DNA from: Fidelibacterota bacterium
Lineage (GTDB): Bacteria; Verrucomicrobiota; Kiritimatiellia; JAIPIQ01
Length of the DNA stretch: 64,000 nucleotides
Assembly (NCBI GenBank): GCA_021734645.1
Contig: JAIPIQ010000001.1
Span: forward strand, 3,422 to 67,421
Direction: 5' to 3'
Position numbers and translations under genes: made by a program. How positions within the stretch are numbered: position 1 is the first letter of the stretch; each line of letters opens with the position of its first letter. The notes beneath the pieces were generated by a model. The model had not been told where the DNA came from. It ran no database searches and was given only the letters and a program-made list of their open reading frames with translations. Below are positions 2,104 to 61,920 of this stretch, in pieces.

Positions 2104-5859
<3,756 letters not shown>

Positions 5860-46956: not shown

Positions 46957-47042
46957 TATTCTCTAGCGCCGCCCAGCCCCGAACGCCAGCCCAATCTGTC
47001 CGCTCGACAGTGCCGGCCGACATGCTATGCTGGCCCCGGAAT

Positions 47043-47127
47043 GGGCGAGTGGTGGAATTGGCAGACACGCAAGACTTAGGATCTTGTGCCGCAAGGCGTG
47101 CGGGTTCGAGTCCCGCCCCGCCCACCA
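47043..47127 (+). tRNA. tRNA-Leu (anticodon TAG), type II with a long variable arm, CCA encoded
   Basis: Manually folded. One A-C mismatch in the acceptor stem, T-loop TTCGAGT, anticodon loop CTTAGGA. Confidence 0.8.
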
Positions 47128-47134
47128 ACCCCCG

Positions 47135-47160
47135 GGGCGAACAGAACCCCGTGTTCGCCC
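47135..47160 (+). terminator. Stem-loop (8-bp stem GGGCGAAC/GTTCGCCC, 10-nt loop) directly after tRNA-Leu. Could be a tRNA 3' terminator or an attachment-site remnant.
   Basis: Seen in sequence. Confidence 0.3.
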
Positions 47161-47176
47161 AAAGGACTTTGTGAAC

Positions 47177-48772
47177 ATGTATGAGATGAAGTTCGCCATG
47201 CAGGGCGCGCAGGACAACGGCGAGTTCTTCACCCCGCCCGCGCTCGTCAAGACCCTCGTCAACGTCATCGAGCCGGACCACGGCATCGTCTTCGATCCCG
47301 CCTGCGGCTCAGGCGGCATGTTCGTCCAGTCCAGCCACTTCATCGAGCGCCGTGGCGACCGCGCCGCCCACAAGGTCACTTTCTACGGGCACGAGTACAA
47401 GACGAGCAACATCCGGCTGGCTCTGATGAACCTCGCCGTCCACGCCCTCGAGGGCTCGATCAAGGAGGCCAACACCTTCTATGACGATCCGCACGAGCTG
47501 TTCGGGAAGTGCGACTTCGTCATGGCCAATCCGCCGTTCAACGTGGACAAGGTGGATGCAGGGAAGATCAGGACTGACCGACGCCTGCCGTTCGGATTGC
47601 CGGGCGTGAACAAGGACAAGCAGGTCAGCAACGGGAACTACCTGTGGATCTCGTTCTTCTGGAGCTACCTGAACCAGACCGGCCGCGCCGGGTTTGTCAT
47701 GTCGTCCCAGGCCAGCAGCGCTGGCCACGGCGAGGCCGAAGTCCGCCGCAAGCTCGTCGAAACCGGCGACGTGGACGTGATGATCTCCATCCGCTCCAAC
47801 TTCTTCTACACGCGAACCGTGCCCTGCGAACTCTGGCACTTCGACAAGGGCAAGCCCGCCGCCCGGCGCGACCAGGTGCTGATGATTGACGCCCGGAACA
47901 TCTATCGCAAGGTCACCCGCAAGATTTACGACTTCTCCCCGGAGCAGCAGCAGAACCTCGCCGCCATCGTCTGGCTTTACCGCGGCCAGCCCGACCGCTT
48001 TGTCGGGCTGGTGCAGCAGTACCTCGACCGCACTCTCGCCGAAGCCGCCGCAATAGCCGCTAAGATCGAATCCTTCCGCAAAGCGTGCGCCGCCCTCGCA
48101 ACTGCCGCCGCACCCTTTTTCAAGACCCTGCCCAAAGATTCGCCCCTGCGCGATGGGATCAAGGAACGTGACGATGCGGCCAAGGTTTGTTTCCAAGGCC
48201 TGGATGATCTGATTGCGCGAGTCTCCAAGGATTGGAAGAACTCCTGCGAACCTAACCTCACCGCACAGAAGAAACGGCAGGCCAGCCTGGACGAGCTCGC
48301 CGCTGCCTGCCGGGACCTGGTGAAGGACGCCGACCTCGTCTACAAGCTCGCAGCCCGCGTCTCGGACGCAGCAGAAAAGGATGCCGGGGCCAAGGAGCAC
48401 GACGACTGGGACGGCCGCGCCATCGGGCGGCTGGAGAAAGAACTCGACGCCCGCCGCAAGGAACTGGTCGAACAACTCAAGACCGCCGCCTACTTCGAGC
48501 GGCAGGCCCACTGGCTCCTCTCGCGCTTTCCGGACGGGAAGCTCGTCGCCGTCCCCGGCCTCGTGAAGCTGGTGGACCGCAAGGAAATCGAAGCCGCCGA
48601 CTGGAGCCTCACCCCCGGTCGCTACGTCGGCGTCGCCCCCGTCGAGGACGACGAGGACTTCGACTTCGAGCAGACCCTGCGCGACATCCACACCGAACTC
48701 GCCGACCTGAACAAGGAGGCGGCGGAGTTGGCGGCGACGATTCAGAAGAACTTCGAGGGGCTGGGGATATGA
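47177..48772 (+). CDS. hsdM: Type I restriction-modification N6-adenine DNA methyltransferase subunit, lacking the N-terminal HsdM_N domain
   Basis: Begins at MYEMKF (equivalent to DMYEGLL of EcoKI M). Motif X FFTPP, motif I FDPACGSGGM, motif IV NPPF and the long coiled-coil C-terminal tail ...LTPGRYVG... Confidence 0.85.
   Translation: MYEMKFAMQGAQDNGEFFTPPALVKTLVNVIEPDHGIVFDPACGSGGMFVQSSHFIERRGDRAAHKVTFYGHEYKTSNIRLALMNLAVHALEGSIKEANTFYDDPHELFGKCDFVMANPPFNVDKVDAGKIRTDRRLPFGLPGVNKDKQVSNGNYLWISFFWSYLNQTGRAGFVMSSQASSAGHGEAEVRRKLVETGDVDVMISIRSNFFYTRTVPCELWHFDKGKPAARRDQVLMIDARNIYRKVTRKIYDFSPEQQQNLAAIVWLYRGQPDRFVGLVQQYLDRTLAEAAAIAAKIESFRKACAALATAAAPFFKTLPKDSPLRDGIKERDDAAKVCFQGLDDLIARVSKDWKNSCEPNLTAQKKRQASLDELAAACRDLVKDADLVYKLAARVSDAAEKDAGAKEHDDWDGRAIGRLEKELDARRKELVEQLKTAAYFERQAHWLLSRFPDGKLVAVPGLVKLVDRKEIEAADWSLTPGRYVGVAPVEDDEDFDFEQTLRDIHTELADLNKEAAELAATIQKNFEGLGI
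48704..48772 (+). repeat. hsdM 3'-terminal segment, copy A (authentic end). Its TGA overlaps the ATG of the next gene.
   Basis: Roughly 69 nt, repeated at 49863-49928 and 50673-50741. Confidence 0.8.
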
Positions 48773-49797
48773 GCGACGCACCCGCAAAACTTCCTGGTGA
48801 CTATGCCGCGCTACTGGTCGAGATCAAGGAACGCGTCCGCTCCGCGCAACTCGCCGCTTTCCGGGCGGTCAACAAGGGGCTGGTCGGGCTGTATTGGGAT
48901 ATCGGGCTGATGATTGTCGAACGGCAGGCCGGGGAAACATGGGGGAAGGCAATTGTCCAACAACTGGCTGGAGATTTGCAGCGGGAGTTCCCGGACGTCG
49001 GCGGGTTTTCGGCCTCCAATCTGTGGCGGATGAAGGGATTCTACGAGGCGTATCGCGCCTCCGGAAAACTCGCACCACTGGTGCGAGAAATCGCCTGGAG
49101 TCACAACCTCATCATCTTGGAGCGGTGCAATGAACCGCTGGAGCGCGAGTTCTACCTGCGGATGACCCGCAAATTCGGCTGGTCCAAGAACGTGCTGATC
49201 CACCAGATCGAGAACCAGACCTACGAAAAGAGCCTGCTCGGCCAGACCAACTTCGATAAGGTCTTGACGCCCGAATTGCGCGCCCAGGCCAAGCTGGCCG
49301 TCCGGGATGAGTACAGCTTTGACTTTCTGGAATTGAGCGCAAAGCATTCCGAACGCGAACTCGAACGGGCACTGATTGCGCGCATCGAGCATTTCCTCCG
49401 CGCCATGGGCGGCATGTTTGCCTTTGTCGGCAGTCAGTTCCGGCTGGAAGTCGAGGGCAAGGAGTATTTCATAGACCTGCTCCTGTTCCATCGCCGCCTC
49501 AAATGCTTGGTCGCCATCGAGCTCAAGATCGGCGAGTTCGAGCCCGAGTTCATCGGCAAGATGCAGTTCTATCTGACGGCCCTGGATAAGCAGGTTCGCG
49601 AGGAGGGCGAGAACCCGGCCATCGGCATCATCCTCTGCAAGGAAAAGAAACGCACCGTCGTGGAATACGCCCTCGCACCCGTCAACAAACCCATCGGTGT
49701 CGCCACCTACCAGATCGTCAAACGACTGCCCAAAGCCCTCAAAGGCCAACTCCCCAGTCCCGAACAGATCGTCAAATTGCTGGAGGAGGGCGTGTGA
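48769..49797 (+). CDS. DUF1016/YhcG-family PD-(D/E)xK nuclease inserted between hsdM and hsdS
   Basis: DUF1016_N-like N-terminus (LYWDIGLMIVERQ...GFSASNLWRMKGFY). C-terminal D...ELK core (FIDLLLFH...VAIELKIGEF). Confidence 0.82.
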   Translation: MSDAPAKLPGDYAALLVEIKERVRSAQLAAFRAVNKGLVGLYWDIGLMIVERQAGETWGKAIVQQLAGDLQREFPDVGGFSASNLWRMKGFYEAYRASGKLAPLVREIAWSHNLIILERCNEPLEREFYLRMTRKFGWSKNVLIHQIENQTYEKSLLGQTNFDKVLTPELRAQAKLAVRDEYSFDFLELSAKHSERELERALIARIEHFLRAMGGMFAFVGSQFRLEVEGKEYFIDLLLFHRRLKCLVAIELKIGEFEPEFIGKMQFYLTALDKQVREEGENPAIGIILCKEKKRTVVEYALAPVNKPIGVATYQIVKRLPKALKGQLPSPEQIVKLLEEGV

Positions 49798-49862
49798 AAG
49801 ACGGCAAATCATCCTGCCGCGCCAATGGTGCAAGACACACTGGCACAATTATATCGCCCGCC

Positions 49863-49928
49863 GCCCTGAAGACTCAGGTGGCGGAACTGGCCGCGACGAT
49901 TCAGAAGAACTTCGAGGGGCTGATGTGA
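49863..49928 (+). repeat. hsdM 3'-terminal segment, copy B (partial, diverged). Encodes ...AELAATIQKNFEGLM*
   Basis: A 30-nt identical core, gcgacgattcagaagaacttcgaggggctg, shared with copy A. Confidence 0.8.
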
Positions 49929-49940
49929 AGAGGGTCATGC

Positions 49941-50017
49941 AAAGGACAAAAAGGACGAAAAGGACAAAAAACGCCGCGGCGCCACTCTTTTTCGTTTCTC
50001 TGGTCCTTTTTGTCCTT
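49941..50017. repeat. Long imperfect inverted repeat / hairpin (AAAGGACAAAAAGGAC ... CGCCGCGGCG ... GTCCTTTTTGTCCTTT) immediately upstream of the four-helix-bundle gene
   Basis: Seen in sequence. The palindromic centre lies at 49972-49981. Confidence 0.6.
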
Positions 50018-50031
50018 TCAGTCCCTTTCTT

Positions 50032-50619
50032 ATGGAGTTCTCCATGACAACCGACGGCTTCATTCCGGCGCATGGCGGGTTCCAGGCATTGAAATCCTAT
50101 CAGAAGGCGGTCATTGTCTATGATGCCACCGTGCGATTCTGCGACCGGTTCATCGCCAAGCGTGGCGACCGCACGCGCGATCAGATGATCCAGGCGGCGC
50201 GGTCGGGCAAGCAGAACATTGTCGAGGGCAGCCAGTTCTCCGGCACATCTAAGGAAATAGAATTGAAGCTGACCAATGTGGCCCGCGCCAGCCTGGCGGA
50301 GCTGGCGGAAGACTACCGCGACTTCCTGCGCTTACGTGGCGCGGAGGAATGGCCAGCCACGCATCCGTATGCCCAACGCCTGCGCGCGCTCAACCGGCAG
50401 CCCGGCGCCGGCTATGAGACGTTTCGCAAAGGGATCGAGCATGAAGACCCACTTATCGCCGCGAACGTCATCCTGGGACTGACCCGCGTGACCTGCTTCC
50501 TGCTGGACCGCCAGCTCAAGCATCTGGAAAAGGCCTTTATTGAAGAGGGCGGTTTGCGCGAACGCATGACCCGCGCCCGCCTCGACCGCCGAGCCCAACA
50601 ACGAGGCCACACCCCATGA
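50032..50619 (+). CDS. Four-helix-bundle protein (TIGR02436 / 23S rRNA intervening-sequence protein family)
   Basis: KSYQKAV...NIVEGSQFSGTSKEIELKLTNVARASLAEL family signature. Flanked by the direct repeat TCCTTTTTGTCC (50004-50015 and 50636-50647). Confidence 0.72.
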   Translation: MEFSMTTDGFIPAHGGFQALKSYQKAVIVYDATVRFCDRFIAKRGDRTRDQMIQAARSGKQNIVEGSQFSGTSKEIELKLTNVARASLAELAEDYRDFLRLRGAEEWPATHPYAQRLRALNRQPGAGYETFRKGIEHEDPLIAANVILGLTRVTCFLLDRQLKHLEKAFIEEGGLRERMTRARLDRRAQQRGHTP

Positions 50620-50672
50620 CCCCCACCCCCTTCCGTCCTTTTTGTCCCTTGGCCCCAAATGACGCCCCGGCT

Positions 50673-50741
50673 GACCTGAACAAGGAGGCGGTGGAGTTAG
50701 CGGCAAAGATTCAGCGGAACCTCGAGGGGTCGGGGATATGA
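50673..50741 (+). repeat. hsdM 3'-terminal segment, copy C (diverged, ...DLNKEAVELAAKIQRNLEGSGI*). Its TGA overlaps the hsdS ATG.
   Basis: Aligned by eye to copy A. Confidence 0.8.
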
Positions 50742-51910
50742 AGTGGCGACCGCACCAACTCCGAGATCTCTGCTGTCAGGTAGTCTCCGGCGGAACACCG
50801 TCAACAAGCCAATCTCATTTCTATGGCGGCCCAATTCCATGGCTCCGAACACAGGAGGTCACTTTCAACCGTATAGCGGAAACAGAAATGACCATCACGG
50901 AGGATGGATTGGCGAACTCAACAGCCAAATGGGTCCCCGAGAACAGCGTCATCGTCGCGATGTACGGCAACTCTGCAGGCCGCGTTGCAACCAATTTGAT
51001 TCCCCTGACCACGAATCAAGCCTGCTGTAACCTCATTATCGATTCCAGCAAAGCTGACTACCGCTTCATCTTCTACCGGCTAATGCTCGATTACAACGTG
51101 CTGCACCAGATGGCAAAAGGGGCCGCTCAAAACAATCTCAACGCAGGACAGATCAAAGCATACACAATACAAGCGCCCTCCGTGTCTGAACAGGGCGCGA
51201 TTGCTGAAGTTGTGTCCGCCTACGACGATCTGATCGAAAACAACCGGCGGCGGATGAAGCTGCTGGAGGAGGCCGCCCGGCAGTTGTACCGCGAGTGGTT
51301 CGTCCGCCTCCGCTTTCCCGGCCATGAACGCGCCAAGATCAAGAATGGCCTGCCCGAGGGGTGGGAGAGACAACCATTGGGAGACTTGGCCGATGTCACG
51401 ATGGGCCAAAGTCCCGAATCATCGTACTACAATGAGACTGGCGAAGGGCTTCCATTCCACCAAGGCGTTGCCGATTTCGGAGATCGTTTTGTTTCTCACC
51501 GCGTATTCACCACAGCCCTGAACCGTCTTGCTGAACCCAGCGATATCCTTTGTAGCGTTCGCGCTCCGGTTGGTCGGCTCAATCTGACGCTCGACAAGAT
51601 AGTGATCGGGCGGGGCCTCTCCGCTATCCGAAGTCGCACAAACCATCAGTCGCTGTTGTTCTACCAACTGCGGAACCACTTCTTCAAAGAGGATTTGATC
51701 GGCGCGGGATCAATCTTCGCATCGGTAACGAAAGCGGAGTTTCTTCGACAGGAGATTCTTGTCCCACCCAAGCATGTAGCCGATGCATTCGAAGATGTGT
51801 CCCGCCCACTTGACGACCAACTGCGGCTACAGAATGAGCAGAACCAGAAGCTCCGCTCTGCCCGTGATTTGCTGCTGCCGAAGCTGATGAGCGGGGAGCT
51901 TGCGGTATGA
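50738..51910 (+). CDS. hsdS: Type I restriction-modification specificity subunit with two target-recognition domains
   Basis: 390 aa with a central conserved coiled-coil repeat (IENNRRRMKLLEEAARQLYREWFVRLRFPGHE) and a repeat of it at the C-terminus. Visibly lower GC than the flanks. Confidence 0.87.
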   Translation: MKWRPHQLRDLCCQVVSGGTPSTSQSHFYGGPIPWLRTQEVTFNRIAETEMTITEDGLANSTAKWVPENSVIVAMYGNSAGRVATNLIPLTTNQACCNLIIDSSKADYRFIFYRLMLDYNVLHQMAKGAAQNNLNAGQIKAYTIQAPSVSEQGAIAEVVSAYDDLIENNRRRMKLLEEAARQLYREWFVRLRFPGHERAKIKNGLPEGWERQPLGDLADVTMGQSPESSYYNETGEGLPFHQGVADFGDRFVSHRVFTTALNRLAEPSDILCSVRAPVGRLNLTLDKIVIGRGLSAIRSRTNHQSLLFYQLRNHFFKEDLIGAGSIFASVTKAEFLRQEILVPPKHVADAFEDVSRPLDDQLRLQNEQNQKLRSARDLLLPKLMSGELAV

Positions 51911-52000
51911 GAGGTATGAGGGGTCTGAGGGCCTGCGGAGCAGGGCCATTGGGCTTGTCGCCGCGGAAGCAACCGGTGTATGATTGAACCCGGGTGAGAA

Positions 52001-52780
52001 ATGAGCACGGTACGGACTATAGAATTCGTTCTTCGAGGAAAGGTCGGTGGCGTCGAACTGACGCCGCGCATGATCGGTTTGTCGCAATTTAACGAGTTCA
52101 ACCAGCAGGTCGAAGCGTTTATCGCGGGTTCCCAGCGGGGCAAGCAGAACGAAACGCATGTGGAGGTCGCCGAGGGTTCCTACAAGCTCCGGGTTACGCT
52201 GGCCGCGGCGGCGGCGCTGGCGCTCCAACCGGACCTCGTGCTCATGGCGCGCGACGACGCGCTCGGCGAGCTGGACCCGAAGCGGGCCGAGGTGGTGTCC
52301 AAGTGGCAGGCGTCCGCCCGGCGGGATGACGGCTATGAGTACGAGATCCGGCCCGATCTGGAGGCCCTGCCCAAGGTCATGTTGACGAAAAGGACCGACT
52401 ACCGGATCGGGGCGGCGAGCCCCTGGGTGACGGTCGAAAAATACCTTTTTGGGGTGGTCGAGGACATGGGTGGGGCGCAGAAGGCGAACATTCACCTGCG
52501 GTTGCGCGATACGGGGCAGACCGTGATTGTCGGCGCGTCTCAGGACTTCCTCCGCGATCAGTCCGAAAACCGTGTCTATCGGCAGGCGCTCTTGCGCGTC
52601 AAGGCTGAACAGCACTTCAAAACCGGTCAGTTGCGCAATGTCCGCCTCCTTGCGTTCGAGGATTACGCTCCCTCCTACGACGAGAACGCGCTCAATGCGT
52701 TTTCGTACCAGGGAACTCAGGCGTGGCGCGACATTCCGGATGCCGTGGCTTGGGTCCGCGAGCAGAGGGGAGGTCGCTGA
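52001..52780 (+). CDS. Uncharacterised 259-aa protein embedded between hsdS and hsdR. No recognisable family. Appears to have an internal two-fold repeat.
   Basis: Intact ORF, co-oriented. Its stop lies 3-28 nt before the hsdR start. Confidence 0.5.
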   Translation: MSTVRTIEFVLRGKVGGVELTPRMIGLSQFNEFNQQVEAFIAGSQRGKQNETHVEVAEGSYKLRVTLAAAAALALQPDLVLMARDDALGELDPKRAEVVSKWQASARRDDGYEYEIRPDLEALPKVMLTKRTDYRIGAASPWVTVEKYLFGVVEDMGGAQKANIHLRLRDTGQTVIVGASQDFLRDQSENRVYRQALLRVKAEQHFKTGQLRNVRLLAFEDYAPSYDENALNAFSYQGTQAWRDIPDAVAWVREQRGGR

Positions 52781-52808
52781 TGGGTGCCGGGGATTGAACG
52801 GCGTTCTG

Positions 52809-55800
52809 ATGGCCTACACCGACATCAACAGCGAGGACCGGCTGGTGCAGGTGACCTTCGCCGAGCATCTGGAACGGCAGCTTGGTTGGGAGAGCGTGTT
52901 TGCCTGGAATGAGGAAACCTTCGGGCCTAACGGTACGCTGGGGCGGGCAGACACGCGCGAGGTGGTCCTGACCCGCGATTTGCGGGCGGCTGTGGGCCGA
53001 CTCAACCCCGACCTGCCCGCGACGGCCCTGGACGAGGCAGTACGCACGATGTCGCGACACGACTTCACGCGGTCGTTGCTACAACACAACCAGGATTTCC
53101 ACGGCTTCATGCGCGACGGCGTGCCGGTCTCCTATCGCGACGCGCAGGGAGTTCTGCGCGAGGAACGGGCGCGGGTGCTTGACTTCCGCAACGCGGCGAA
53201 CAACCGGTTCCTGGCGGTGCGCGAGCTGAAGCTCACCAGTCTGCGCATGCCGAGCTACAACCGCCGGGCGGACCTGGTCTACTTCGTCAACGGCCTGCCG
53301 CTGGTGTTTATTGAGCTGAAAGCCGTTTACAAGAATATTCGGGCCGCTTTTGATGGCAACCTGCGCGATTATATGGACGAGCACATCGTCGCCCACGCCT
53401 TTCATCACAATGCGTTTCTGGTCGTCAGCAACGGACACCGCGCCCGGTACGGAGCGATCACCAGTGCGTGGGACCATTTCGCGGAGTGGAAACGCCTCGA
53501 TGAGGCGGACAAGGGCAGCGTCGAGGCAGAGGTGCTCCTGAACGGGATGCTGGCGCATGACCGCCTGCTGGACATTGTCGAGAATTTCATCCTGTTCGAC
53601 GCCAGCAAACCGGGCCAGACCCGCAAGATCGTGGCACGCAACCACCAGGTTCACGGGGTCAACCAGGCGGTGGCGGCGGTGCGGCGGCAGGAGGAGTTGA
53701 AACAGGCGTTTCCGCCTGAGCTGCGCCTGAAGTCCCGCACCATTGAACTGCTGCCGCGCATGGCGGCCGAAGTCTCGCCAAGGGGCGACGCCCTGTACGA
53801 AGATCCGGTCGTCGAGTGGCCCGAGATGGCCGAGTCATTGAGCCTGCTTAAATACGTCGAACCGGCCCATCCGGACCTGGGAAGACTGGGCGTGTTCTGG
53901 CATACGCAGGGCAGCGGCAAGTCCTACTCGATGGCCTTTTTCGCGGAGAAGGTCCGACGCACGATATCGGCCAAGTTCACCTTCCTGCTGATGACCGACC
54001 GCCAGGATCTCGACGGCCAGATATTCGACACGTTCCGCGGCTGCGGCGTGGTGGACGAGAAGTCCCCCCGCGCCGCGACGGGCGAAGATCTCAAGCATCT
54101 CCTGGGAGAGAACCACCGCTATATCTTCAGCCTGATCCACAAGTTCAACCAGGATGTGGACCCGCGCAAGCCCTACAGTCCGCGGGACGACATCATCGTG
54201 ATCTCCGACGAGGCCCACCGGACGCAGGCCGGCAAACTGGCCCGCAACATGCGGCTGGCTCTGCCGAATGCCTCCTTTATCGGGTTCACCGGCACACCCC
54301 TGTTCAAGCACGACCACCTCACCCGGCGCATTTTCGGCACCTACGTCTCGCGCTACGACTTCAAACGGTCCGAGCAGGACGGCTCGACCGTCAAACTCGT
54401 GTACGAGAACCGGGGCGAGAAACTGGGCCTGGCCCGGCTCGACCTTAACGACCGCATCGCCGCCGCCATTGCCAAAGCTGAACTGAACCCCGACGAGGAA
54501 CTCCTGCTGGAGAAACTGCTCGGGCAGGACTACGAGGTGATCACGGCCCGCAATCGCCTCAATAAAATCGCATTCGATTTCGTCGAACACTGTGCCACCC
54601 GGTGGGAATCGGGAAAATCCATGTTCGTCTGCCTGGATAAGATCACCTGCGGCCGCATGCTCAAACGGGTCAGGCGCCTCTGGAAACTCAAATTGGCGCG
54701 GGTGCAGCAGGTGCTCAACCGCAAGCAAACCGCGCTGGCGACCCAGACCAACGAAGACCATCGTGAACGCATTGCAAAAGAAGTGGCTTGGTTGCGAGGA
54801 CAGGCGAACTGGCTGCGGGAGACGATGGTTGAACTCGTGGTATCCGAGGGGCAGAACGAAATCGCCGACTTCAAGAAGTGGGGGATTGACATCCTGCCGC
54901 ACCGGGCGCTGATGAAGCAGGGGTTCGAGACCCCGGACGGCAAGCGGGTGGATGTGGAAACCGCTTTCAAGGATCCGGCCCATCCGTTCCGCGTGGCGAT
55001 TGTCTGCGCCATGTGGCTGACCGGTTTCGATGTCGAATGTCTCTCTACGCTGTACATAGACAAGCCCATGAAGGCGCACACGCTCATGCAGGCCATCGCG
55101 CGGGCCAACCGGGTTTATCCCGGCAAGGATTTCGGCCTGATTGGGGCAAAGGGCTTCGCCAAAATTGCGGCGCTCGCCGACGGCGTGGAAGCGGTCACCA
55201 GCGCCCGAGACGAGGGACGGCGGCGGTTCGAAATCATGGCGCGCCAGGTCTTCGACCGTTTCAAGGCGCTGCTCATGGAACCGGCCGCCTTTGCTTTCGC
55301 AGAGCGGCACGACAACATTGAGGCGATTTACAAGAAACTTCAGGAACGGCGCGATACCGCTGACGTTACCGAGTTGCTCAAGGAACTACAGCGGGTGGTC
55401 AACGAGGCCATTCGTGCCGCCGCCCCCGGCGCCGACCAGGCGGATGCCAAACTTTACGACTTGAGCGCCGTGGACCTGGAAAAACTGCGCGCCGAGTTTG
55501 CCAAGAAGGCCACGCACAAGGCCACGGTCCTGGAGGACATCCGGCAGATCGTCGAAAAGAAACTGGCGCAGATGCTCGCCCGGAACCCGCAGCGCATGGA
55601 CTATTACAAGAAGTACTCCGAAATCATTGCCGACTACAACCACGACAAGGATCGGGTTACGATTGAAGAAACCTTTGCCCGGCTGGTTGACTTGGCTGCG
55701 AGCCTGGACGCCGAATCCCGGCGCGCCGCCGAAGAAGGCCTGAGCGAAGAAGAATACGCCCTGTTCTGCCTGCTACAGAAGGACCGTATCAGCAAGGCTG

Positions 55801-56045
55801 ACCGGGACCGGATCAAACTCGCCAGCCGCCAGCTCTACGATTCGCTCCGAGCATTGCTCGCCCGACGCGAGCAATGGACCCAGAAGGAACAGACGCAGGC
55901 GGAAGTCGAGACCCTGATTCTGGACCACCTGTTTGTGGCGCTGCCGACGCCACCCTACACGGAAGCAGAGAAACAGGCTGCGGCAAAACAGGTCTACCAG
56001 TTCGTCTGGCAGCAATCCGCCAGTGGGGTGTTTGTGGCGGCTTGA
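52809..56045 (+). CDS. hsdR: Type I restriction enzyme endonuclease/helicase subunit (alternative TTG start at 52794)
   Basis: HsdR_N-like N-terminus, Walker A HTQGSGKS, DEAH VISDEAHRTQ, roughly 1078 aa. Confidence 0.9.
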   Translation: MAYTDINSEDRLVQVTFAEHLERQLGWESVFAWNEETFGPNGTLGRADTREVVLTRDLRAAVGRLNPDLPATALDEAVRTMSRHDFTRSLLQHNQDFHGFMRDGVPVSYRDAQGVLREERARVLDFRNAANNRFLAVRELKLTSLRMPSYNRRADLVYFVNGLPLVFIELKAVYKNIRAAFDGNLRDYMDEHIVAHAFHHNAFLVVSNGHRARYGAITSAWDHFAEWKRLDEADKGSVEAEVLLNGMLAHDRLLDIVENFILFDASKPGQTRKIVARNHQVHGVNQAVAAVRRQEELKQAFPPELRLKSRTIELLPRMAAEVSPRGDALYEDPVVEWPEMAESLSLLKYVEPAHPDLGRLGVFWHTQGSGKSYSMAFFAEKVRRTISAKFTFLLMTDRQDLDGQIFDTFRGCGVVDEKSPRAATGEDLKHLLGENHRYIFSLIHKFNQDVDPRKPYSPRDDIIVISDEAHRTQAGKLARNMRLALPNASFIGFTGTPLFKHDHLTRRIFGTYVSRYDFKRSEQDGSTVKLVYENRGEKLGLARLDLNDRIAAAIAKAELNPDEELLLEKLLGQDYEVITARNRLNKIAFDFVEHCATRWESGKSMFVCLDKITCGRMLKRVRRLWKLKLARVQQVLNRKQTALATQTNEDHRERIAKEVAWLRGQANWLRETMVELVVSEGQNEIADFKKWGIDILPHRALMKQGFETPDGKRVDVETAFKDPAHPFRVAIVCAMWLTGFDVECLSTLYIDKPMKAHTLMQAIARANRVYPGKDFGLIGAKGFAKIAALADGVEAVTSARDEGRRRFEIMARQVFDRFKALLMEPAAFAFAERHDNIEAIYKKLQERRDTADVTELLKELQRVVNEAIRAAAPGADQADAKLYDLSAVDLEKLRAEFAKKATHKATVLEDIRQIVEKKLAQMLARNPQRMDYYKKYSEIIADYNHDKDRVTIEETFARLVDLAASLDAESRRAAEEGLSEEEYALFCLLQKDRISKADRDRIKLASRQLYDSLRALLARREQWTQKEQTQAEVETLILDHLFVALPTPPYTEAEKQAAAKQVYQFVWQQSASGVFVAA

Positions 56046-56780: not shown

Positions 56781-58106
56781 ATGGAACGACCCAACATACT
56801 GTACATTCTGGCGGACGACCTGGGCTGGGGCGATTTGAGTCTGCACGGCTCGCCCATTCGCACGCCGAACATTGACCAGTTGGCGCGGGAAGGGGTCGAG
56901 CTGACGCAGCACTATGTTTGCCCCATGTGCACGCCGACGCGCGCCTCGCTGTTGACGGGCCGGTATCCGAGTCGTTTCGGCCCCCATGGCACGGTGCCGT
57001 CGAATGCGCCGGTGTTCCCGGACGGCTACCAGACGCTGGCCACGATCCTGCGCGACGCGGGGTACGACACGGGTCTGTTCGGCAAATGGCATTTGGGCTC
57101 CGCCCCGCAGTATGGTCCGAATCAGTACGGGTTCAATACGGCCTACGGCAGTCTGGCGGGCGGGATTGATCCGTACAGCCATCGGTACAAGCGCGGCGAG
57201 TTTTCGGTGGCGTGGCATCGCAACGGCACGCTGGTGGAAGAGCGGGGGCATGTCACCGATTTGATCCTGAACGAGGCCCGGGAGTGGATCGAGACCCGGA
57301 ATCAGCCCTGGTTCTGTTATGTGCCGTTCACGGCCGTGCATATTCCCATCAAGCCGACACAGGAGTGGATGGCGCGGTACTATCCCGAGCAGTTCGACGA
57401 CGATCCGTTGAAGGACCGTTCGTACAAGATGTATGCGGCCTACACCAGCCATATGGATCATGCCATCGGGCAACTGCTCGAGACCCTCGAGCAATTGGGC
57501 CAGCGCGAGAACACGATCATCGTGTTTTCTTCGGACAATGGCGCGGTCAACGAAACACCGCTGCATGCCACGGACCAATATCCCGGTTGGCAGGAAGCGT
57601 ATCCGCGGCTGGGATCGAACGCGCCCTGGCGCGGGGTCAAGGCACAATTGTACGAGGGCGGCATCCGCACGCCCACCCTCGTCAACTGGCGCAGTCGGCT
57701 GACGCCGGGGCGGATGGAACACCCCGTGCAGGTCACGGATTGGATGCCCTCGTTCAGCGCGCTGGTCGGCGCGCCGCCCAAGGAAGATCCCCGGTACGAT
57801 GGCCGGGACATCTGGCCCTTGATCACGGGGGAAACCAAGACGCCCGCGCCGCGGCATCTGTTCTGGAACTTCAAGGGCGATCAGCATCTCGGGTTGCGGC
57901 TGGGCGACTGGAAACTGATCGTCAACCACAAGCAGGGCCATTCGAAACAGGAGCTGTTCAACCTGGCGGACGATCCGTATGAGCAGAATGACCAAGCCAG
58001 CGATCGGCCCGACAAGGTCGCGGAGCTGGCGGCGTTGATTGCGGCAGAGCGGCAAGCGGACAATTCGTCGGCCCGGTCTGATGTGGCCGGGCCCCGGATG
58101 CCCTAA
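56781..58106 (+). CDS. Arylsulfatase-family sulfatase with no obvious signal peptide
   Basis: CPMCTPTRASLLTGR (C-x-P-x-R formylglycine signature) and the sulfatase N-terminal LADDLGWGD. Confidence 0.88.
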   Translation: MERPNILYILADDLGWGDLSLHGSPIRTPNIDQLAREGVELTQHYVCPMCTPTRASLLTGRYPSRFGPHGTVPSNAPVFPDGYQTLATILRDAGYDTGLFGKWHLGSAPQYGPNQYGFNTAYGSLAGGIDPYSHRYKRGEFSVAWHRNGTLVEERGHVTDLILNEAREWIETRNQPWFCYVPFTAVHIPIKPTQEWMARYYPEQFDDDPLKDRSYKMYAAYTSHMDHAIGQLLETLEQLGQRENTIIVFSSDNGAVNETPLHATDQYPGWQEAYPRLGSNAPWRGVKAQLYEGGIRTPTLVNWRSRLTPGRMEHPVQVTDWMPSFSALVGAPPKEDPRYDGRDIWPLITGETKTPAPRHLFWNFKGDQHLGLRLGDWKLIVNHKQGHSKQELFNLADDPYEQNDQASDRPDKVAELAALIAAERQADNSSARSDVAGPRMP

Positions 58107-58112
58107 GCGCCT

Positions 58113-59288
58113 TCAGCCATTGTCCGGCCGGGCGTCCTTGCGGGCCAGCTTCTGGGCCACGGCCTCGACGACCTGCTCGACTGTGAGATGCTGCATGCAG
58201 TGGGCTTGGTCCGTGCAATAGCGGTCCCCGTAATGCGGGCAGGTGTGTGCCTGGCGGTCATACACGCAGTTGGCGGGATAGGTGGCGGGTTGCACGACGG
58301 TATTGAACGCGCCGGTGGGATCATAGGGGCGGCAGAACACGGGATTGGTGGGGCCGAACAGGGAAACCGTATGATGGGCCCGGTACCAGCGGCCGTTGGC
58401 GGCCTGAACCGCGCCGGGCGCGTCGGGCGCCGTCTCGCTGGCGGAACCGGCCATGTGATTGGCGAAGCTGTCATTCCCGACGGAGACCGTGAAGGCGCCG
58501 GAATGCAGCAGGCAGGCGTCAACCGCCAGGGTGGTTTCCTCGACCAGGTTGGTGACCAGGCCATCTTGAAAATGAGTGCGGGCGACCTGGCGGTCATAGT
58601 CCTGATTGGGGGCGAAGCGGCCGGCGCCCATGAGCACCACTTTGCACCCCAGGTCGTGCACAAGGATTTCGGCCAGGCGGCGGAAATGGGTCGCCGGCCA
58701 GATTTTACTGAACTGCGCGGATCCGGGATTGAGCGCCACGCTTTTCACTTCGCGCAGGCCCTCGCGCCGCGCAATGGCCTCGGCGGCGTCCATGGTCTGC
58801 GGGCTGAAAGGCAGGGCAAAGGAAACCGGGGTGTGCGCCACGCCCAGGTCGCGCAGGCCGCTCAGGTAGGCCTCAACCATGTGGCCGTCGGTCCGGCGCG
58901 GCAGGCACTGAGCCCGGGGGTGCAGCAGGCGCGCCAGCAGATACTCGCGCGCATCGCGCCGGTGCGGAATCAGCACCGTGCGGTCTCCTCCCCAGGGCAT
59001 GTACAGGCCCGTCTTGCCGCGGCCCTTGAGGTCGAGGAAGGTGGCGGTGCCGTCGGCCCGGGTTTGTCGGCGCACGGCCCGCGCCGTCGCCCGCCGCGTC
59101 GCCGGGCAGTCCACGTAGACGGCCTCGAGCAGGCCGTTCTTCATGATCTCGGCCAGGGGCTGCTGGACCTGCGAGACAACCAGTGAAACCGACTCGAACC
59201 GGGTCTTGAGGGCGTGAATGGTCGGCACGATCCAGACCAGGTCGCCCAGCCAGCCGGAATAGACAATCAGGATCCGATTCGGGTTCAT
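58113..59288 (-). CDS. Glycosyltransferase family 9 (heptosyltransferase-like) with a C-terminal Cys/His-rich extension
   Basis: Start at MNPNRILIVYSGWLGD, ...SLFGPTNP..., tail C..C..CPHYGDRYC..HC. Confidence 0.78.
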   Translation of the reverse strand: MNPNRILIVYSGWLGDLVWIVPTIHALKTRFESVSLVVSQVQQPLAEIMKNGLLEAVYVDCPATRRATARAVRRQTRADGTATFLDLKGRGKTGLYMPWGGDRTVLIPHRRDAREYLLARLLHPRAQCLPRRTDGHMVEAYLSGLRDLGVAHTPVSFALPFSPQTMDAAEAIARREGLREVKSVALNPGSAQFSKIWPATHFRRLAEILVHDLGCKVVLMGAGRFAPNQDYDRQVARTHFQDGLVTNLVEETTLAVDACLLHSGAFTVSVGNDSFANHMAGSASETAPDAPGAVQAANGRWYRAHHTVSLFGPTNPVFCRPYDPTGAFNTVVQPATYPANCVYDRQAHTCPHYGDRYCTDQAHCMQHLTVEQVVEAVAQKLARKDARPDNG

Positions 59289-60436
59289 GGGCGTGGCGCC
59301 ATTTCGGTTACGGCGGCCAGCACCCGTTCGGGCGTCAGGCCGCGCATACAGGATTTGGGCGGGCAACCGCGCCGGTAACAACGGCAGGCTTCCCGGGCGC
59401 CGCGGGGACCGCACGGCGCGTCCAGCGCGAGCACGCGATTCCACTGGCCCGCAGGCTGGTCCGGGAAATGCCGGGAGGGATCATAGGGCGCGTAGCGGCC
59501 CCAGTTGGTGGGCCCGAACAGAGAGACCGTGCGGTTGCGGGCATCCTCGCCCACTGAGCCAGCCATATGCATCGGTCCCGTATCGCAGCCGACGACCACG
59601 GCCGGAACGCCTGAATACCGCAGGAAATGGGCGTCGCGCTGCAGATGCAACGCCGGGGAGAGCCCGTTCGCGGTCACCAAATCGAGGCAGCGCTCGCCGT
59701 CTATCAGGCCCGCGGCGGTGAAGCGCTCGATTGTGTGGCGATCATAGTCGCCGTCGGCCGCAAAGGCCTGGGCGCCGGTCAGGGCCACGCGGTATCCCTG
59801 GGCGATGAGGTTTTGAGCCAGCGTTTGGATGTGTTCGGCGGGCCAGCGTTTGGTGTCGCGGCTTGCGCCCAGATTGATGGCCACCACGACGCCCGCGCGC
59901 AGATCGTGCCGGGCGATCAGGGCTTCGCATGCCGCGACGGCCTGCTCGGGCAGGGTGATTCGGAAGGAAAGGACGGGATCCGGCGCGCCCAGGAAGCGGG
60001 CCAAGGCCAGCAGTTCGTCCACCCGGTGCTGGCCGGCGGCCAGGCGGGGCATGGCCGTCGCCCAGGGGGTGTACAGCGCGCACAGACCCTTGCAATCCGC
60101 GCGGTGCGGGCGGAAGCGTTGGCCCCGGCGGCCGGTGAGCAACAGGCCGGCCTGGTCGTTCCCGGCCAGATCCAGCAGCGTGTCCACGCGCAGGGCCGTC
60201 AGTTTCCGGCGCACCTCCCAGGGGCTTGTCCCGCCGCCGATCACCAGCACTTCATCGGCCAGCAGGCCCTTTTGCGGTACCGCCAGCGGGGCCTGTTTTC
60301 GTTTGACCACCCAGGTGATATGCGCCTGCGCGAAGGCGCGGCGCAGGGTGTGGAGCGCCGGCAGCGCAAAAAAGAAGTCCCCGATGGCCTTCGGGTAGAC
60401 AATGGCCAGGCGCCGGATGGATTCCACGGAATGCAT
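59285..60436 (-). CDS. Glycosyltransferase family 9 paralogue (heptosyltransferase-like) with a C-terminal Cys-rich extension
   Basis: Start at MHSVESIRRLAIVYPKAIGDF, ...SLFGPTNW..., tail CGPRGAREACRCYRRGCPPKSC. Overlaps the downstream paralogue by 4 nt. Confidence 0.78.
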   Translation of the reverse strand: MHSVESIRRLAIVYPKAIGDFFFALPALHTLRRAFAQAHITWVVKRKQAPLAVPQKGLLADEVLVIGGGTSPWEVRRKLTALRVDTLLDLAGNDQAGLLLTGRRGQRFRPHRADCKGLCALYTPWATAMPRLAAGQHRVDELLALARFLGAPDPVLSFRITLPEQAVAACEALIARHDLRAGVVVAINLGASRDTKRWPAEHIQTLAQNLIAQGYRVALTGAQAFAADGDYDRHTIERFTAAGLIDGERCLDLVTANGLSPALHLQRDAHFLRYSGVPAVVVGCDTGPMHMAGSVGEDARNRTVSLFGPTNWGRYAPYDPSRHFPDQPAGQWNRVLALDAPCGPRGAREACRCYRRGCPPKSCMRGLTPERVLAAVTEMAPRP

Positions 60437-60500
60437 AATGCGGCGCAGCCTAGCAACCGGGGCATCGGGCGTAAAGTGAAAAGGCGTTCGCCGATTGACC

Positions 60501-60859
60501 GGGCGCAATCACGATTCACTGACCTGTGTTAGGCAGCGTTTGCGGCGTCGTCCCGATTCGAGCATACAGAATCACAAACGAACGCGGGAACGGACAAAGA
60601 AGCATGGGACCCGTTCCCGGGGTTCATTGGCCAACGCTTTGGAGTGCGGCAGCGTGGGCTGCCGCTTTGAGCGGCGAAGCGCTGCTTCGCTGCGGACCTG
60701 ACCAGGCGCCCGACCTGTCACTGATCCAAGCACCATGAAAAGCGGCAGCTCACGCTGCCGCACTCCATAGAACGCTCGCGGTCATCCCCCGCCTTCTATG
60801 TATTTTTTGCCTCTTTGGCCCCAATGACGGCCCACAGTCAGTGAATCGTGATTGCGCCC
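60501..60859. mobile_element. MITE-like non-coding element. Perfect 22-bp terminal inverted repeats (GGGCGCAATCACGATTCACTGA / TCAGTGAATCGTGATTGCGCCC) flank a 315-bp, highly hairpin-rich interior. Flanked by an 8-9-bp direct repeat (C)GATTGACC that looks like a target-site duplication.
   Basis: Read directly. It occupies the divergent intergenic region between the GT9 gene and the heptose-kinase-like gene. An invertible promoter switch is an alternative reading. Confidence 0.5.
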
Positions 60860-60897
60860 GATTGACCGGCGGGGGGATTTCCATTACTTTCAGGGCC

Positions 60898-61920
60898 ATG
60901 AAATGGCTGACGGTGGCGGAACTGGAAATATTGCTGGGGCGCCTGCCCGGTTTGCGGGTCGGCGTGCTGGGCGATTTTGCCCTGGATTGCTACTGGCCGG
61001 TGGCGCCGGCGGCGGCCCAGCACTCGGTCGAGACCGGCCGGTTGACCCGCCCGGTGGCGGGTCAGCGCTACGCCCCCGGCGCGGCGGGGAATGTGGTCGT
61101 GAATCTACTGGCGCTGGGGTGCGGCCGCGTATCGGCTTTCGGGGTGCTCGGGCGCGATCCGTGGGGGGCTGAACTCCGGCGGTTGCTGCGGGCGCGCAAG
61201 GCGGATACGACGGGCCTGCCCCGGCAGGCCGCTGATTGGGAAACGGTGGCCTACGTGAAACCGCATCGGCGAGGCGTCGAACAGAACCGGTTTGACTTCG
61301 GCGATTTCAACCGGTTGCATGACGACGTGGCCGATCAACTGGTCCAGCTCCTGGCGGACGCTTTGCCCGGTCTGGACGCAGTGGTGGTCAATGCGCAGGC
61401 GCGCGCCGGGATACATAGCGCGTATCTTCGCCGGCGCCTGGCGGCCCTGATCGGGCGGCATACGGCGCGCCTGTTCATTGTGGACAGCCGGGAACGGGGG
61501 GCGCTGTATCCCGGATGCCTGCTCAAGATCAACAACCTGGAGGCGGCGCGTTGTACGGGGCGGGTGAGTCCCGCCGGGGGCGCGCTGTCGCGCCGCCAGT
61601 CCCTCGCGGCGGCTGCGGCGCTGTTTGCCGAGCGGGACCGCCCGGTATTCGTCACCTGTGGCGCCCGGGGCATGCTGGTGCAGGATCAGACCGGCGTCAC
61701 GGAGGTGCCCGCCATTCCGCTGGGCGCAGCGGGCGACACCACTGGCGCGGGGGATGCCGCGCTGGCCGGCATCACGGCCGCGCTGGCTAGCGGCGCGCCG
61801 CCGGTCGCGGCGGCCGGCCTGGGCACCCTGGCCGCTGCGGTGTGCGTCGGCAAGCTGCGCCAGACCGGAACCGCCAGTCCCGACGAGATCCGGGCGCTGC
61901 TGCGCCGCCGTTCAGGCTAG
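60898..61920 (+). CDS. PfkB-family sugar kinase resembling the kinase domain of HldE/RfaE (D-glycero-beta-D-manno-heptose-7-phosphate kinase)
   Basis: Start at MKWLTVAELEILLG...VGVLGDFALDCYW. The GAGD motif is present. The annotated ORF start at 60841 lies inside the inverted repeat and is rejected. Confidence 0.72.
   Translation: MKWLTVAELEILLGRLPGLRVGVLGDFALDCYWPVAPAAAQHSVETGRLTRPVAGQRYAPGAAGNVVVNLLALGCGRVSAFGVLGRDPWGAELRRLLRARKADTTGLPRQAADWETVAYVKPHRRGVEQNRFDFGDFNRLHDDVADQLVQLLADALPGLDAVVVNAQARAGIHSAYLRRRLAALIGRHTARLFIVDSRERGALYPGCLLKINNLEAARCTGRVSPAGGALSRRQSLAAAAALFAERDRPVFVTCGARGMLVQDQTGVTEVPAIPLGAAGDTTGAGDAALAGITAALASGAPPVAAAGLGTLAAAVCVGKLRQTGTASPDEIRALLRRRSG

Follow-up and report, generated by a model that had tools for sequence, protein, structure and literature searches.

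Classical bacterial MITEs (miniature inverted-repeat transposable elements), such as the Correia/NEMIS elements of Neisseria and the MITEs derived from IS630 and IS200/605, are non-coding sequences of about 100-400 bp with strong hairpin potential, which carry terminal inverted repeats copied from an insertion sequence (IS) together with a target duplication and are often found at intergenic or promoter sites, where neighbouring genes can be affected. The element described here resembles them in these respects but differs in its parent family and in having a duplication of 8-9 bp rather than TA; classical MITE families are moreover defined by a copy number in the tens to hundreds per genome. 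ISKra4-like ISs encode a prokaryotic Mutator-like DDE transposase (Pfam UPF0236). The inverted repeats of prokaryotic Mutator-like elements measure 18-39 bp and have C as their last base, and the duplications generated are 8-9 bp long (PMC3942029). TnGBS/ISLre2 elements and several ISs of the ISKra4 group insert 13-17 nt upstream of sigma-A -35 boxes, measured from the inverted-repeat end, and ISKra4-group elements whose inverted repeats are near-perfect do so with either side toward the promoter (PMC3942029). Three ISKra4-group entries of Table S1 in that paper, ISAcas3 (GGGCGTAGCC), ISAcce1 (GGGTGCATTT) and ISCasp2 (GGGTGCGACT), have ends that start with GGGYGC and 9-bp repeats.

The window analysed here, a 64-kb stretch of DNA (64,000 nt), contains a gene for a family 9 glycosyltransferase (GT9, heptosyltransferase-like; 59285-60436, minus strand; Pfam PF01075, E 6.6e-17) that is transcribed divergently from a gene for a PfkB-family sugar kinase (60898-61920, plus strand; Pfam PF00294, E 1.3e-26), whose homologues go by the name heptose 7-phosphate kinase (rfaE kinase domain) in their sources. 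An earlier note, made from the sequence alone, had read this setting as a GT9 gene starting at 60436 and an HldE-like kinase starting at 60898, and the Pfam matches back that reading. The 461-bp spacer between the two genes holds the whole of a 359-bp element (60501-60859). Its left terminal inverted repeat (60501-60523, plus strand; GGGCGCAATCACGATTCACTGAC), a putative transposase-binding end, is the perfect reverse complement of the right one (60837-60859, minus strand), the two pairing at 23/23 positions. Sequence reading and a repeat finder agree on perfect arms of 23 nt each with 313 nt between them; the repeats had been described as perfect, which they are, but as 22 bp long, and the DNA that they enclose, non-coding and structured as previously stated, is slightly shorter than the 315 bp given for it. 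In 100 dinucleotide shuffles of the window, no match to the repeat was found even when three mismatches were allowed.

Directly outside the inverted repeats lies an exact 8-bp direct repeat, GATTGACC (left copy 60493-60500, right copy 60860-60867), and the earlier reading of the bracketing repeat as a target-site duplication is upheld by this match. The full flanking direct repeat is 12 nt long (CCGATTGACCGG, 60491-60502 and 60858-60869), of which 8 bases fall outside the inverted repeats; the formal length of 12 nt arises because the direct repeat overlaps with the G/C ends of the arms. A 9-bp duplication (GATTGACCG) is obtained only by assigning G60501 to the target, at the cost of a left end that is one G short.

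The 23-mer of the window forms both ends of 1757-bp ISs in the metagenome contigs L003, L049 and L050, with 0 and 1 mismatches at the two ends of the L003 IS and with both arms 23/23 identical in L049 and L050; a further contig, L011, carries a truncated copy of the L003 IS (84% identical over 1352 bp). The L003 IS has two divergent ORFs, encoding a 437 aa transposase and a 110 aa DUF6788 protein. The partner IS transposases are 428-437 aa long and match both NCBIfam NF033572 ('ISKra4 family transposase') and Pfam UPF0236, the latter above its cut-off. NF033572 is the best transposase match (E 2.8e-48, positions 24-413 of 422), with a score of 165 bits that lies below the curated 205, and the NCBIfam ISLre2 model is matched at E 2.5e-20. 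The transposase found on both L049 and L050 (P0081) is 86% identical to that of L003.

Additional ISs of this clade were gathered through seven transposase clusters that are 68-86% identical to the L003 transposase. These ISs are about 1750-1760 bp long, all 11 of the different IS types examined carry the divergent DUF6788 ORF, and their inverted repeats fit the pattern GGGCGCA-N5-G-N-T-N-C-NN-TGAC. Exact 9-bp duplications flank the full-length ISs at four independent sites, compared with 8 bp for the element in the window; duplications were readable at few sites only, since the IS flanks on many short metagenome contigs are chimeric. The clade is abundant in metagenomes, with more than 300 protein clusters and with copies in L018-L064 (for example L045 1057-2815 and L049 312-2068). 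We would also like to note that the first 124 bp of L003 (1-124) recur at the end of the contig (2034-2157), with the IS at 125-1881, and that the sequences on either side of this IS repeat each other in inverted orientation (GGGCAAACGCATCT ... TTTTCGCAAAAACCGC); a further palindromic element may enclose the L003 IS, or the contig could be circular or a tandem assembly.

When set against the ISKra4 group (p-MULT 4; Guerillot et al. 2014, PMC3942029), the element in the window has the same GGG(C/T)GC start and terminal C, its repeat beginning GGGCGCAATC... in the GGGYGC manner of the three Table S1 ISs named above; its near-perfect 23-bp repeats fall inside the 18-39-bp range, and its duplication belongs to the 8-9-bp size class. 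The partner IS encodes a UPF0236 transposase for which ISKra4 is the best match, and insertion takes place upstream of sigma-70-type promoters, with either side possible given the symmetrical repeats. Unlike members of that group, the element in the window has no transposase, as befits a MITE, and its partner transposase comes from a distant clade, sharing about 27% identity with annotated ISKra4 transposases and scoring under the curated NCBIfam cut-off. The clade also differs in carrying the DUF6788 ORF (11/11 IS types examined) and in its spacing to the -35 box, which is 25-27 nt compared with the 13-17 nt reported. The likeness to TnGBS/ISLre2 (p-MULT 3) lies in the related DDE transposase of the partner IS (the ISLre2 match given above) and in insertion at a fixed distance upstream of a -35 box that leaves the promoter intact. 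In contrast, TnGBS are large conjugative elements of Firmicutes, which insert at 15-17 nt in an orientation fixed by asymmetric repeats, whereas the element in the window is 359 bp long, has symmetric repeats and lies at 25 nt. A full-text literature search for ISKra4 together with MITE retrieved no paper with either term in its title or abstract.

An exact-match scan of species-representative genomes for the core of the terminal inverted repeat gave two matches, one of which (L001) is coding, while the other (L002) is real. L002 is a 4.5-kb MAG contig labelled Burkholderiales, and at 4171-4406 it contains a 236-bp element that shares these ends (2 and 0 mismatches) but has an unrelated, hairpin-rich interior; it is flanked by TAATGCGA and TAATGCTG, and its 8-bp duplication has decayed. 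The existence of a second short element with these ends indicates that short foreign inserts are indeed mobilised by them. A short tandem repeat, TGACC(C/T)GAA, is found just upstream of this sibling MITE (L002 4057-4106).

The same scan of metagenome contigs yielded 12 loci. L003 and L011 are the only real ones; at the other 10, which were rejected, the termini are mismatched and no second repeat lies within 3.5 kb. Matches to a single repeat occur at L001 2122-2144 and L014 1462-1484, and also in L004-L010, L012 and L013. L001 and L014 share flanks, the 19-mer within them reads RNHDSLT, which we take to be a GGDEF-type motif, and the L001 match lies within an unbroken reading frame. All single-repeat matches were treated as coding or chance, and because the repeat core occurs alone elsewhere, short exact-match scans for the repeat do catch such matches. 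Within the window, the generalised clade pattern gave a 2-mismatch match at 57546-57568, inside a sulfatase gene, which was set aside as chance because it has neither the GGG end nor a partner.

No second copy of the element is present in the 64-kb window, and the same interior was not found in species-representative genomes, metagenome contigs or viral contigs; the source genome is not among these collections, so little weight attaches to the lack of further copies. A concatenated six-frame translation of the element, searched against a 5.8-billion protein database for spurious ORFs on other copies, returned nothing, a plasmid BLAST with the element gave short matches at chance level only, and scans of viral contigs found neither the terminal inverted repeat nor the inner hairpin. 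As for the search for additional copies that had been proposed in the earlier note, the same 23-mer was recovered in metagenome ISs and a second copy of the interior was not.

At 100% identity, the kinase encoded in the window matches a protein of an NCBI MAG with the label Candidatus Marinimicrobia, and the few named sequences among its next relatives are called Verrucomicrobia; the labels of the window (Marinimicrobia) and of L002 (Burkholderiales) come from binning and should not be over-read. The closest relative (L015-L017) encodes a 68% identical PfkB kinase that likewise diverges from a GT9 gene; the spacer between the two is 93 bp long (L015 3908-4000) and does not contain the element. 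Two further lineages (L026 and L027) encode 63% identical kinases, again in the divergent arrangement, and have 114-bp spacers (2387-2500 in both) without the element. Subtracting the 359-bp element and one 8-bp repeat from the 461-bp spacer of the window leaves 94 bp, and this reconstructed spacer aligns to that of L015 with no gap across the insertion point. In a four-way alignment of the spacers, the duplicated octamer falls on a conserved (G/C)ATTGAC(G/C) block, and the homologous octamer, (G/C)ATTGACG, is present as a single copy in the uninterrupted spacers of the relatives. The empty sites, which are shown at the level of lineages only (three related ones), form together with the octamer match the classical signature of an insertion and exclude a conserved regulatory structure; conservation of the element in distant relatives, which the earlier note listed among the signs that would together have pointed to such a structure, is the opposite of what these three lineages show.

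A domain scan that covered about 22 kb around the element (16 ORFs between 42.9 and 63.9 kb) found no site-specific recombinase. Among the genes in this neighbourhood are a Type I restriction-modification cluster, a sulfatase gene and methyltransferase genes. The Type I cluster (47027-56045) consists of hsdM, a gene for a YhcG/DUF1016 PDDEXK nuclease, hsdS and hsdR; the 23S-rRNA-intervening-sequence protein family is also matched there, weakly and below the cut-off, and the third-position GC of the hsdS ORF is 0.63, lower than that of its neighbours.

From the conserved boxes in the spacers we infer two back-to-back promoters, one for the GT9 gene and one for the kinase gene. These promoters were assigned by conservation in four sequences, and a stricter consensus scan found no promoter across the region. 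On the plus strand, the arrangement TTGAC(C/G)-17-TA(G/C)nnT-7-ATG is kept in 3/4 lineages, with distances of 18 and 13 nt in L027, and on the minus strand TTTACG-17-TAGnnT-9/10-ATG is kept in 4/4. The putative GT9 promoter (60447-60475, minus strand) comprises a -35 box TTTACG (60475-60470), a 17-nt spacer and a -10 box TAGGCT (60452-60447). This -10 box is separated by 10 nt from the start codon (ATG at 60436), and 25 nt lie between the -35 box and the left inverted-repeat end. For the kinase, the working copy of the -35 box would be the TTGACC at 60862-60867 (plus strand), within the right copy of the duplication, followed 17 nt later by the predicted -10 box TACTTT (60885-60890, plus strand), 7 nt before the ATG at 60898. 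The short distance of only 7-10 nt between the -10 boxes and the start codons suggests that both spacer promoters in this lineage would give rise to leaderless or near-leaderless mRNAs.

If these back-to-back promoters are correctly placed, the 8 bp that were duplicated happen to be the kinase -35 box. The left duplication copy would then hold an orphaned copy of that box (TTGACC, 60495-60500), facing into the inverted repeat, whereas the right copy keeps the 17-nt distance to TACTTT, by which the core promoter would have been rebuilt. Both core promoters thus appear to be preserved and now stand 367 bp further apart. A promoter formed by the orphan -35 box (60495-60500) and the terminal inverted repeat was considered and rejected, as inspection by eye revealed no acceptable -10 box 16-18 nt downstream.

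The published spacing of 13-17 nt does not describe the element in the window, which lies 25 nt from the -35 box on the GT9 side (TTTACG-17-TAGGCT in the left flank) and only 2 nt from that on the kinase side. Among 50 distinct junctions between inverted repeat and flank in the clade, 17 have TTG at 25-27 nt from the inverted-repeat end, compared with 2.9 expected (P 1.3e-9), and in 12 of those 17 the TTG is at exactly 27 nt. The full motif TTGnnn-16/18-TAnnnT is present at 25-27 nt in 10 of the 50 junctions (P 2e-12), and the mode for the clade is 26-27 nt between the inverted-repeat end and the -35 box. The L049 IS, which has the exact ends of the window element, faces TTGGCG-17-TATCAT at 26 nt, and the L002 MITE has TTGACG at 27 nt from its inverted-repeat end. 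Measured by the same convention, the spacing of the clade is about 10 nt, or about one helical turn, longer than the published 13-17 nt. As the offset in the window fits the rule of the clade, the position of the MITE can be read as the choice of the clade's transposase, with the GT9 promoter as the target.

The interior of the element (60524-60836) is non-coding, rich in G+C hairpins, and unrelated to the parent IS. As single-stranded DNA, the 359-nt element is predicted to fold at -113 kcal/mol, compared with -65.9 +/- 4.6 for shuffles (z = -10.4). Its most prominent feature is an inner inverted pair whose arms (60637-60668, plus strand, and 60739-60770, minus strand) are 32 nt long and 94% complementary, each arm being itself a hairpin of the form GCGGCAGC-N4-GCTGCCGC. 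The left arm reads GCGGCAGC-GTGG-GCTGCCGC and is followed by TTT, and it could be a weak terminator-like site for rightward transcription, its T-run being below the length used by the terminator scan. The right arm reads, on the minus strand, GCGGCAGC-GTGA-GCTGCCGC followed by TTTTCATGGT; the single terminator-like site reported by the scan within the element lies here (minus strand, 60761-60742), and this arm is a candidate intrinsic terminator for leftward transcription. The hexamer AACGCT brackets the inner inverted pair (60641-60767) at 60633-60638 and 60771-60776, which may mean that the MITE harbours a second, smaller palindromic element, or may be chance. Two further hairpins were found, CGGGAACGG ... 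CCGTTCCCG at 60584-60619, in both the minimum-free-energy and the centroid structure, and GCGGCGAAGC-GCT-GCTTCGCTGC at 60671-60693, by the repeat finder and the fold. The earlier account of the interior holds for these further hairpins, which the repeat finder and the fold place at about the positions given, and for the presence of two mutually inverted, self-palindromic hairpins, whose length had been put at 25 nt.

Stop codons occur in every frame of the element, the longest ORFs through it being 63-70 aa with GTG or TTG starts. Tblastn searches with the IS transposase and the DUF6788 protein gave no match in the element, and the transposase search across the whole 64-kb window revealed no transposase-like coding potential. 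A blastn comparison of the interior with all fetched ISs found no similarity past 23-26 bp at each end, and a simple internal deletion derivative of an IS was rejected because no IS-derived sequence remains inside beyond those 23-26 bp. An Rfam search of 60000-61400 produced sub-threshold matches only, to plant miRNA and other models, which were discarded as being driven by generic long hairpins.

IS ends, a target duplication and no transposase gene together make up the anatomy of a MITE, and the element at 60501-60859 is very probably one, with the 23-bp ends of an ISKra4-like IS and without a transposase gene. The earlier note had left two options standing, and the MITE option has prevailed: the repeats are ISKra4-like IS ends, the duplication is 8 bp, no transposase is present, L002 provides a sibling and the relatives are empty. 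The other option was a fim-like invertible promoter, in which a recombinase would flip the segment between the 23-bp repeats and so switch the surface-polysaccharide genes. The locus does resemble fimS-type invertons in having inverted repeats of suitable length around roughly 300 bp in the divergent promoter region of cell-envelope genes, just as invertons have them around a few hundred base pairs before surface-structure genes. However, the same repeats terminate a transposase-bearing IS, and an inverton would not be expected to share its repeats with IS ends, nor to have an exact target duplication outside them; three related lineages have an orthologous spacer that lacks the segment; the two conserved promoters are located beyond its ends, with no sigma-70-like promoter between the repeats in a strict scan that also missed the conserved outside promoters. 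A cognate transposase or recombinase, for which the earlier note proposed to look, was found neither in the whole window (transposase) nor, as a recombinase domain, among the 16 ORFs between 42.9 and 63.9 kb. We accord an invertible promoter next to no likelihood. It is also very unlikely that the segment is a fixed structured regulatory element or a small-RNA gene of the LPS-core locus: the very strong predicted secondary structure (z = -10.4) and the terminator-like hairpins would suit such a role, but the nested inverted repeats of a MITE account for the structure, no Rfam family is matched at threshold apart from plant miRNA-type hits on generic long hairpins below it, and the 93-114-bp spacers of the relatives do without the element.

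A different kind of alternative is a one-off relic, single-copy and no longer mobile, consisting either of an IS whose interior was replaced or deleted or of host DNA between IS ends. This origin would agree with an interior that is unrelated to every fetched IS and for which no second copy was found in the window, in representative genomes, in metagenome or viral contigs, or in the six-frame protein search, although the collections that were scanned do not include the source genome and the absence of copies therefore counts for little. Against it, inverted repeats and a duplication that are both perfect indicate that the short element transposed as such, recently and cleanly; had an IS been gutted in place, some IS sequence past the matching 23-26 bp would probably still be there; and L002 contains a second short element with the same ends. 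We regard a relic as possible but rather unlikely. On the MITE reading, a transposase from a full-length IS elsewhere would have bound both ends, and the element would have inserted between the divergent GT9 and heptose-kinase genes, in the spacer that they share, with staggered cuts leading to the duplication of the target GATTGACC. The choice of site would reflect the preference of the clade for placing the inverted-repeat end 25-27 nt upstream of a -35 box, here that of the GT9 promoter at 25 nt. The right duplication copy would rebuild the kinase promoter while the GT9 promoter stayed untouched, and the retention of the core elements of both promoters would explain why the insertion was tolerated. 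The internal hairpins, including the convergent pair of terminator-like stem-loops, would be passenger structure, which might block transcription across the element.

The block between the GT9 and kinase genes is best treated as a recent insertion of mobile DNA, and not as a phase switch or a conserved regulator of the LPS core, and it should be annotated as a mobile element accordingly. It provides a clean example of a transposon that sits between back-to-back promoters, one of whose -35 boxes appears to have been rebuilt through the target duplication. A less expected by-product is the rule of a target 25-27 nt upstream of promoters for a widespread and poorly annotated IS clade, which extends the promoter targeting of TnGBS, ISLre2 and ISKra4 to a new spacing and to a non-autonomous derivative. 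Whether this is the first recognised MITE of an undescribed ISKra4-like clade, with a transposase that homes to 26-27 nt rather than to 13-17 nt and hence one helical turn further from the promoter than in any Mutator-like bacterial element described so far, is in our judgement about evenly balanced. If so, insertions of the clade and of its MITEs would serve as markers of active sigma-70-type promoters in uncultured bacteria, and the clade would represent a second, differently spaced system in which to study how DDE transposases sense a promoter or promoter-bound RNA polymerase.
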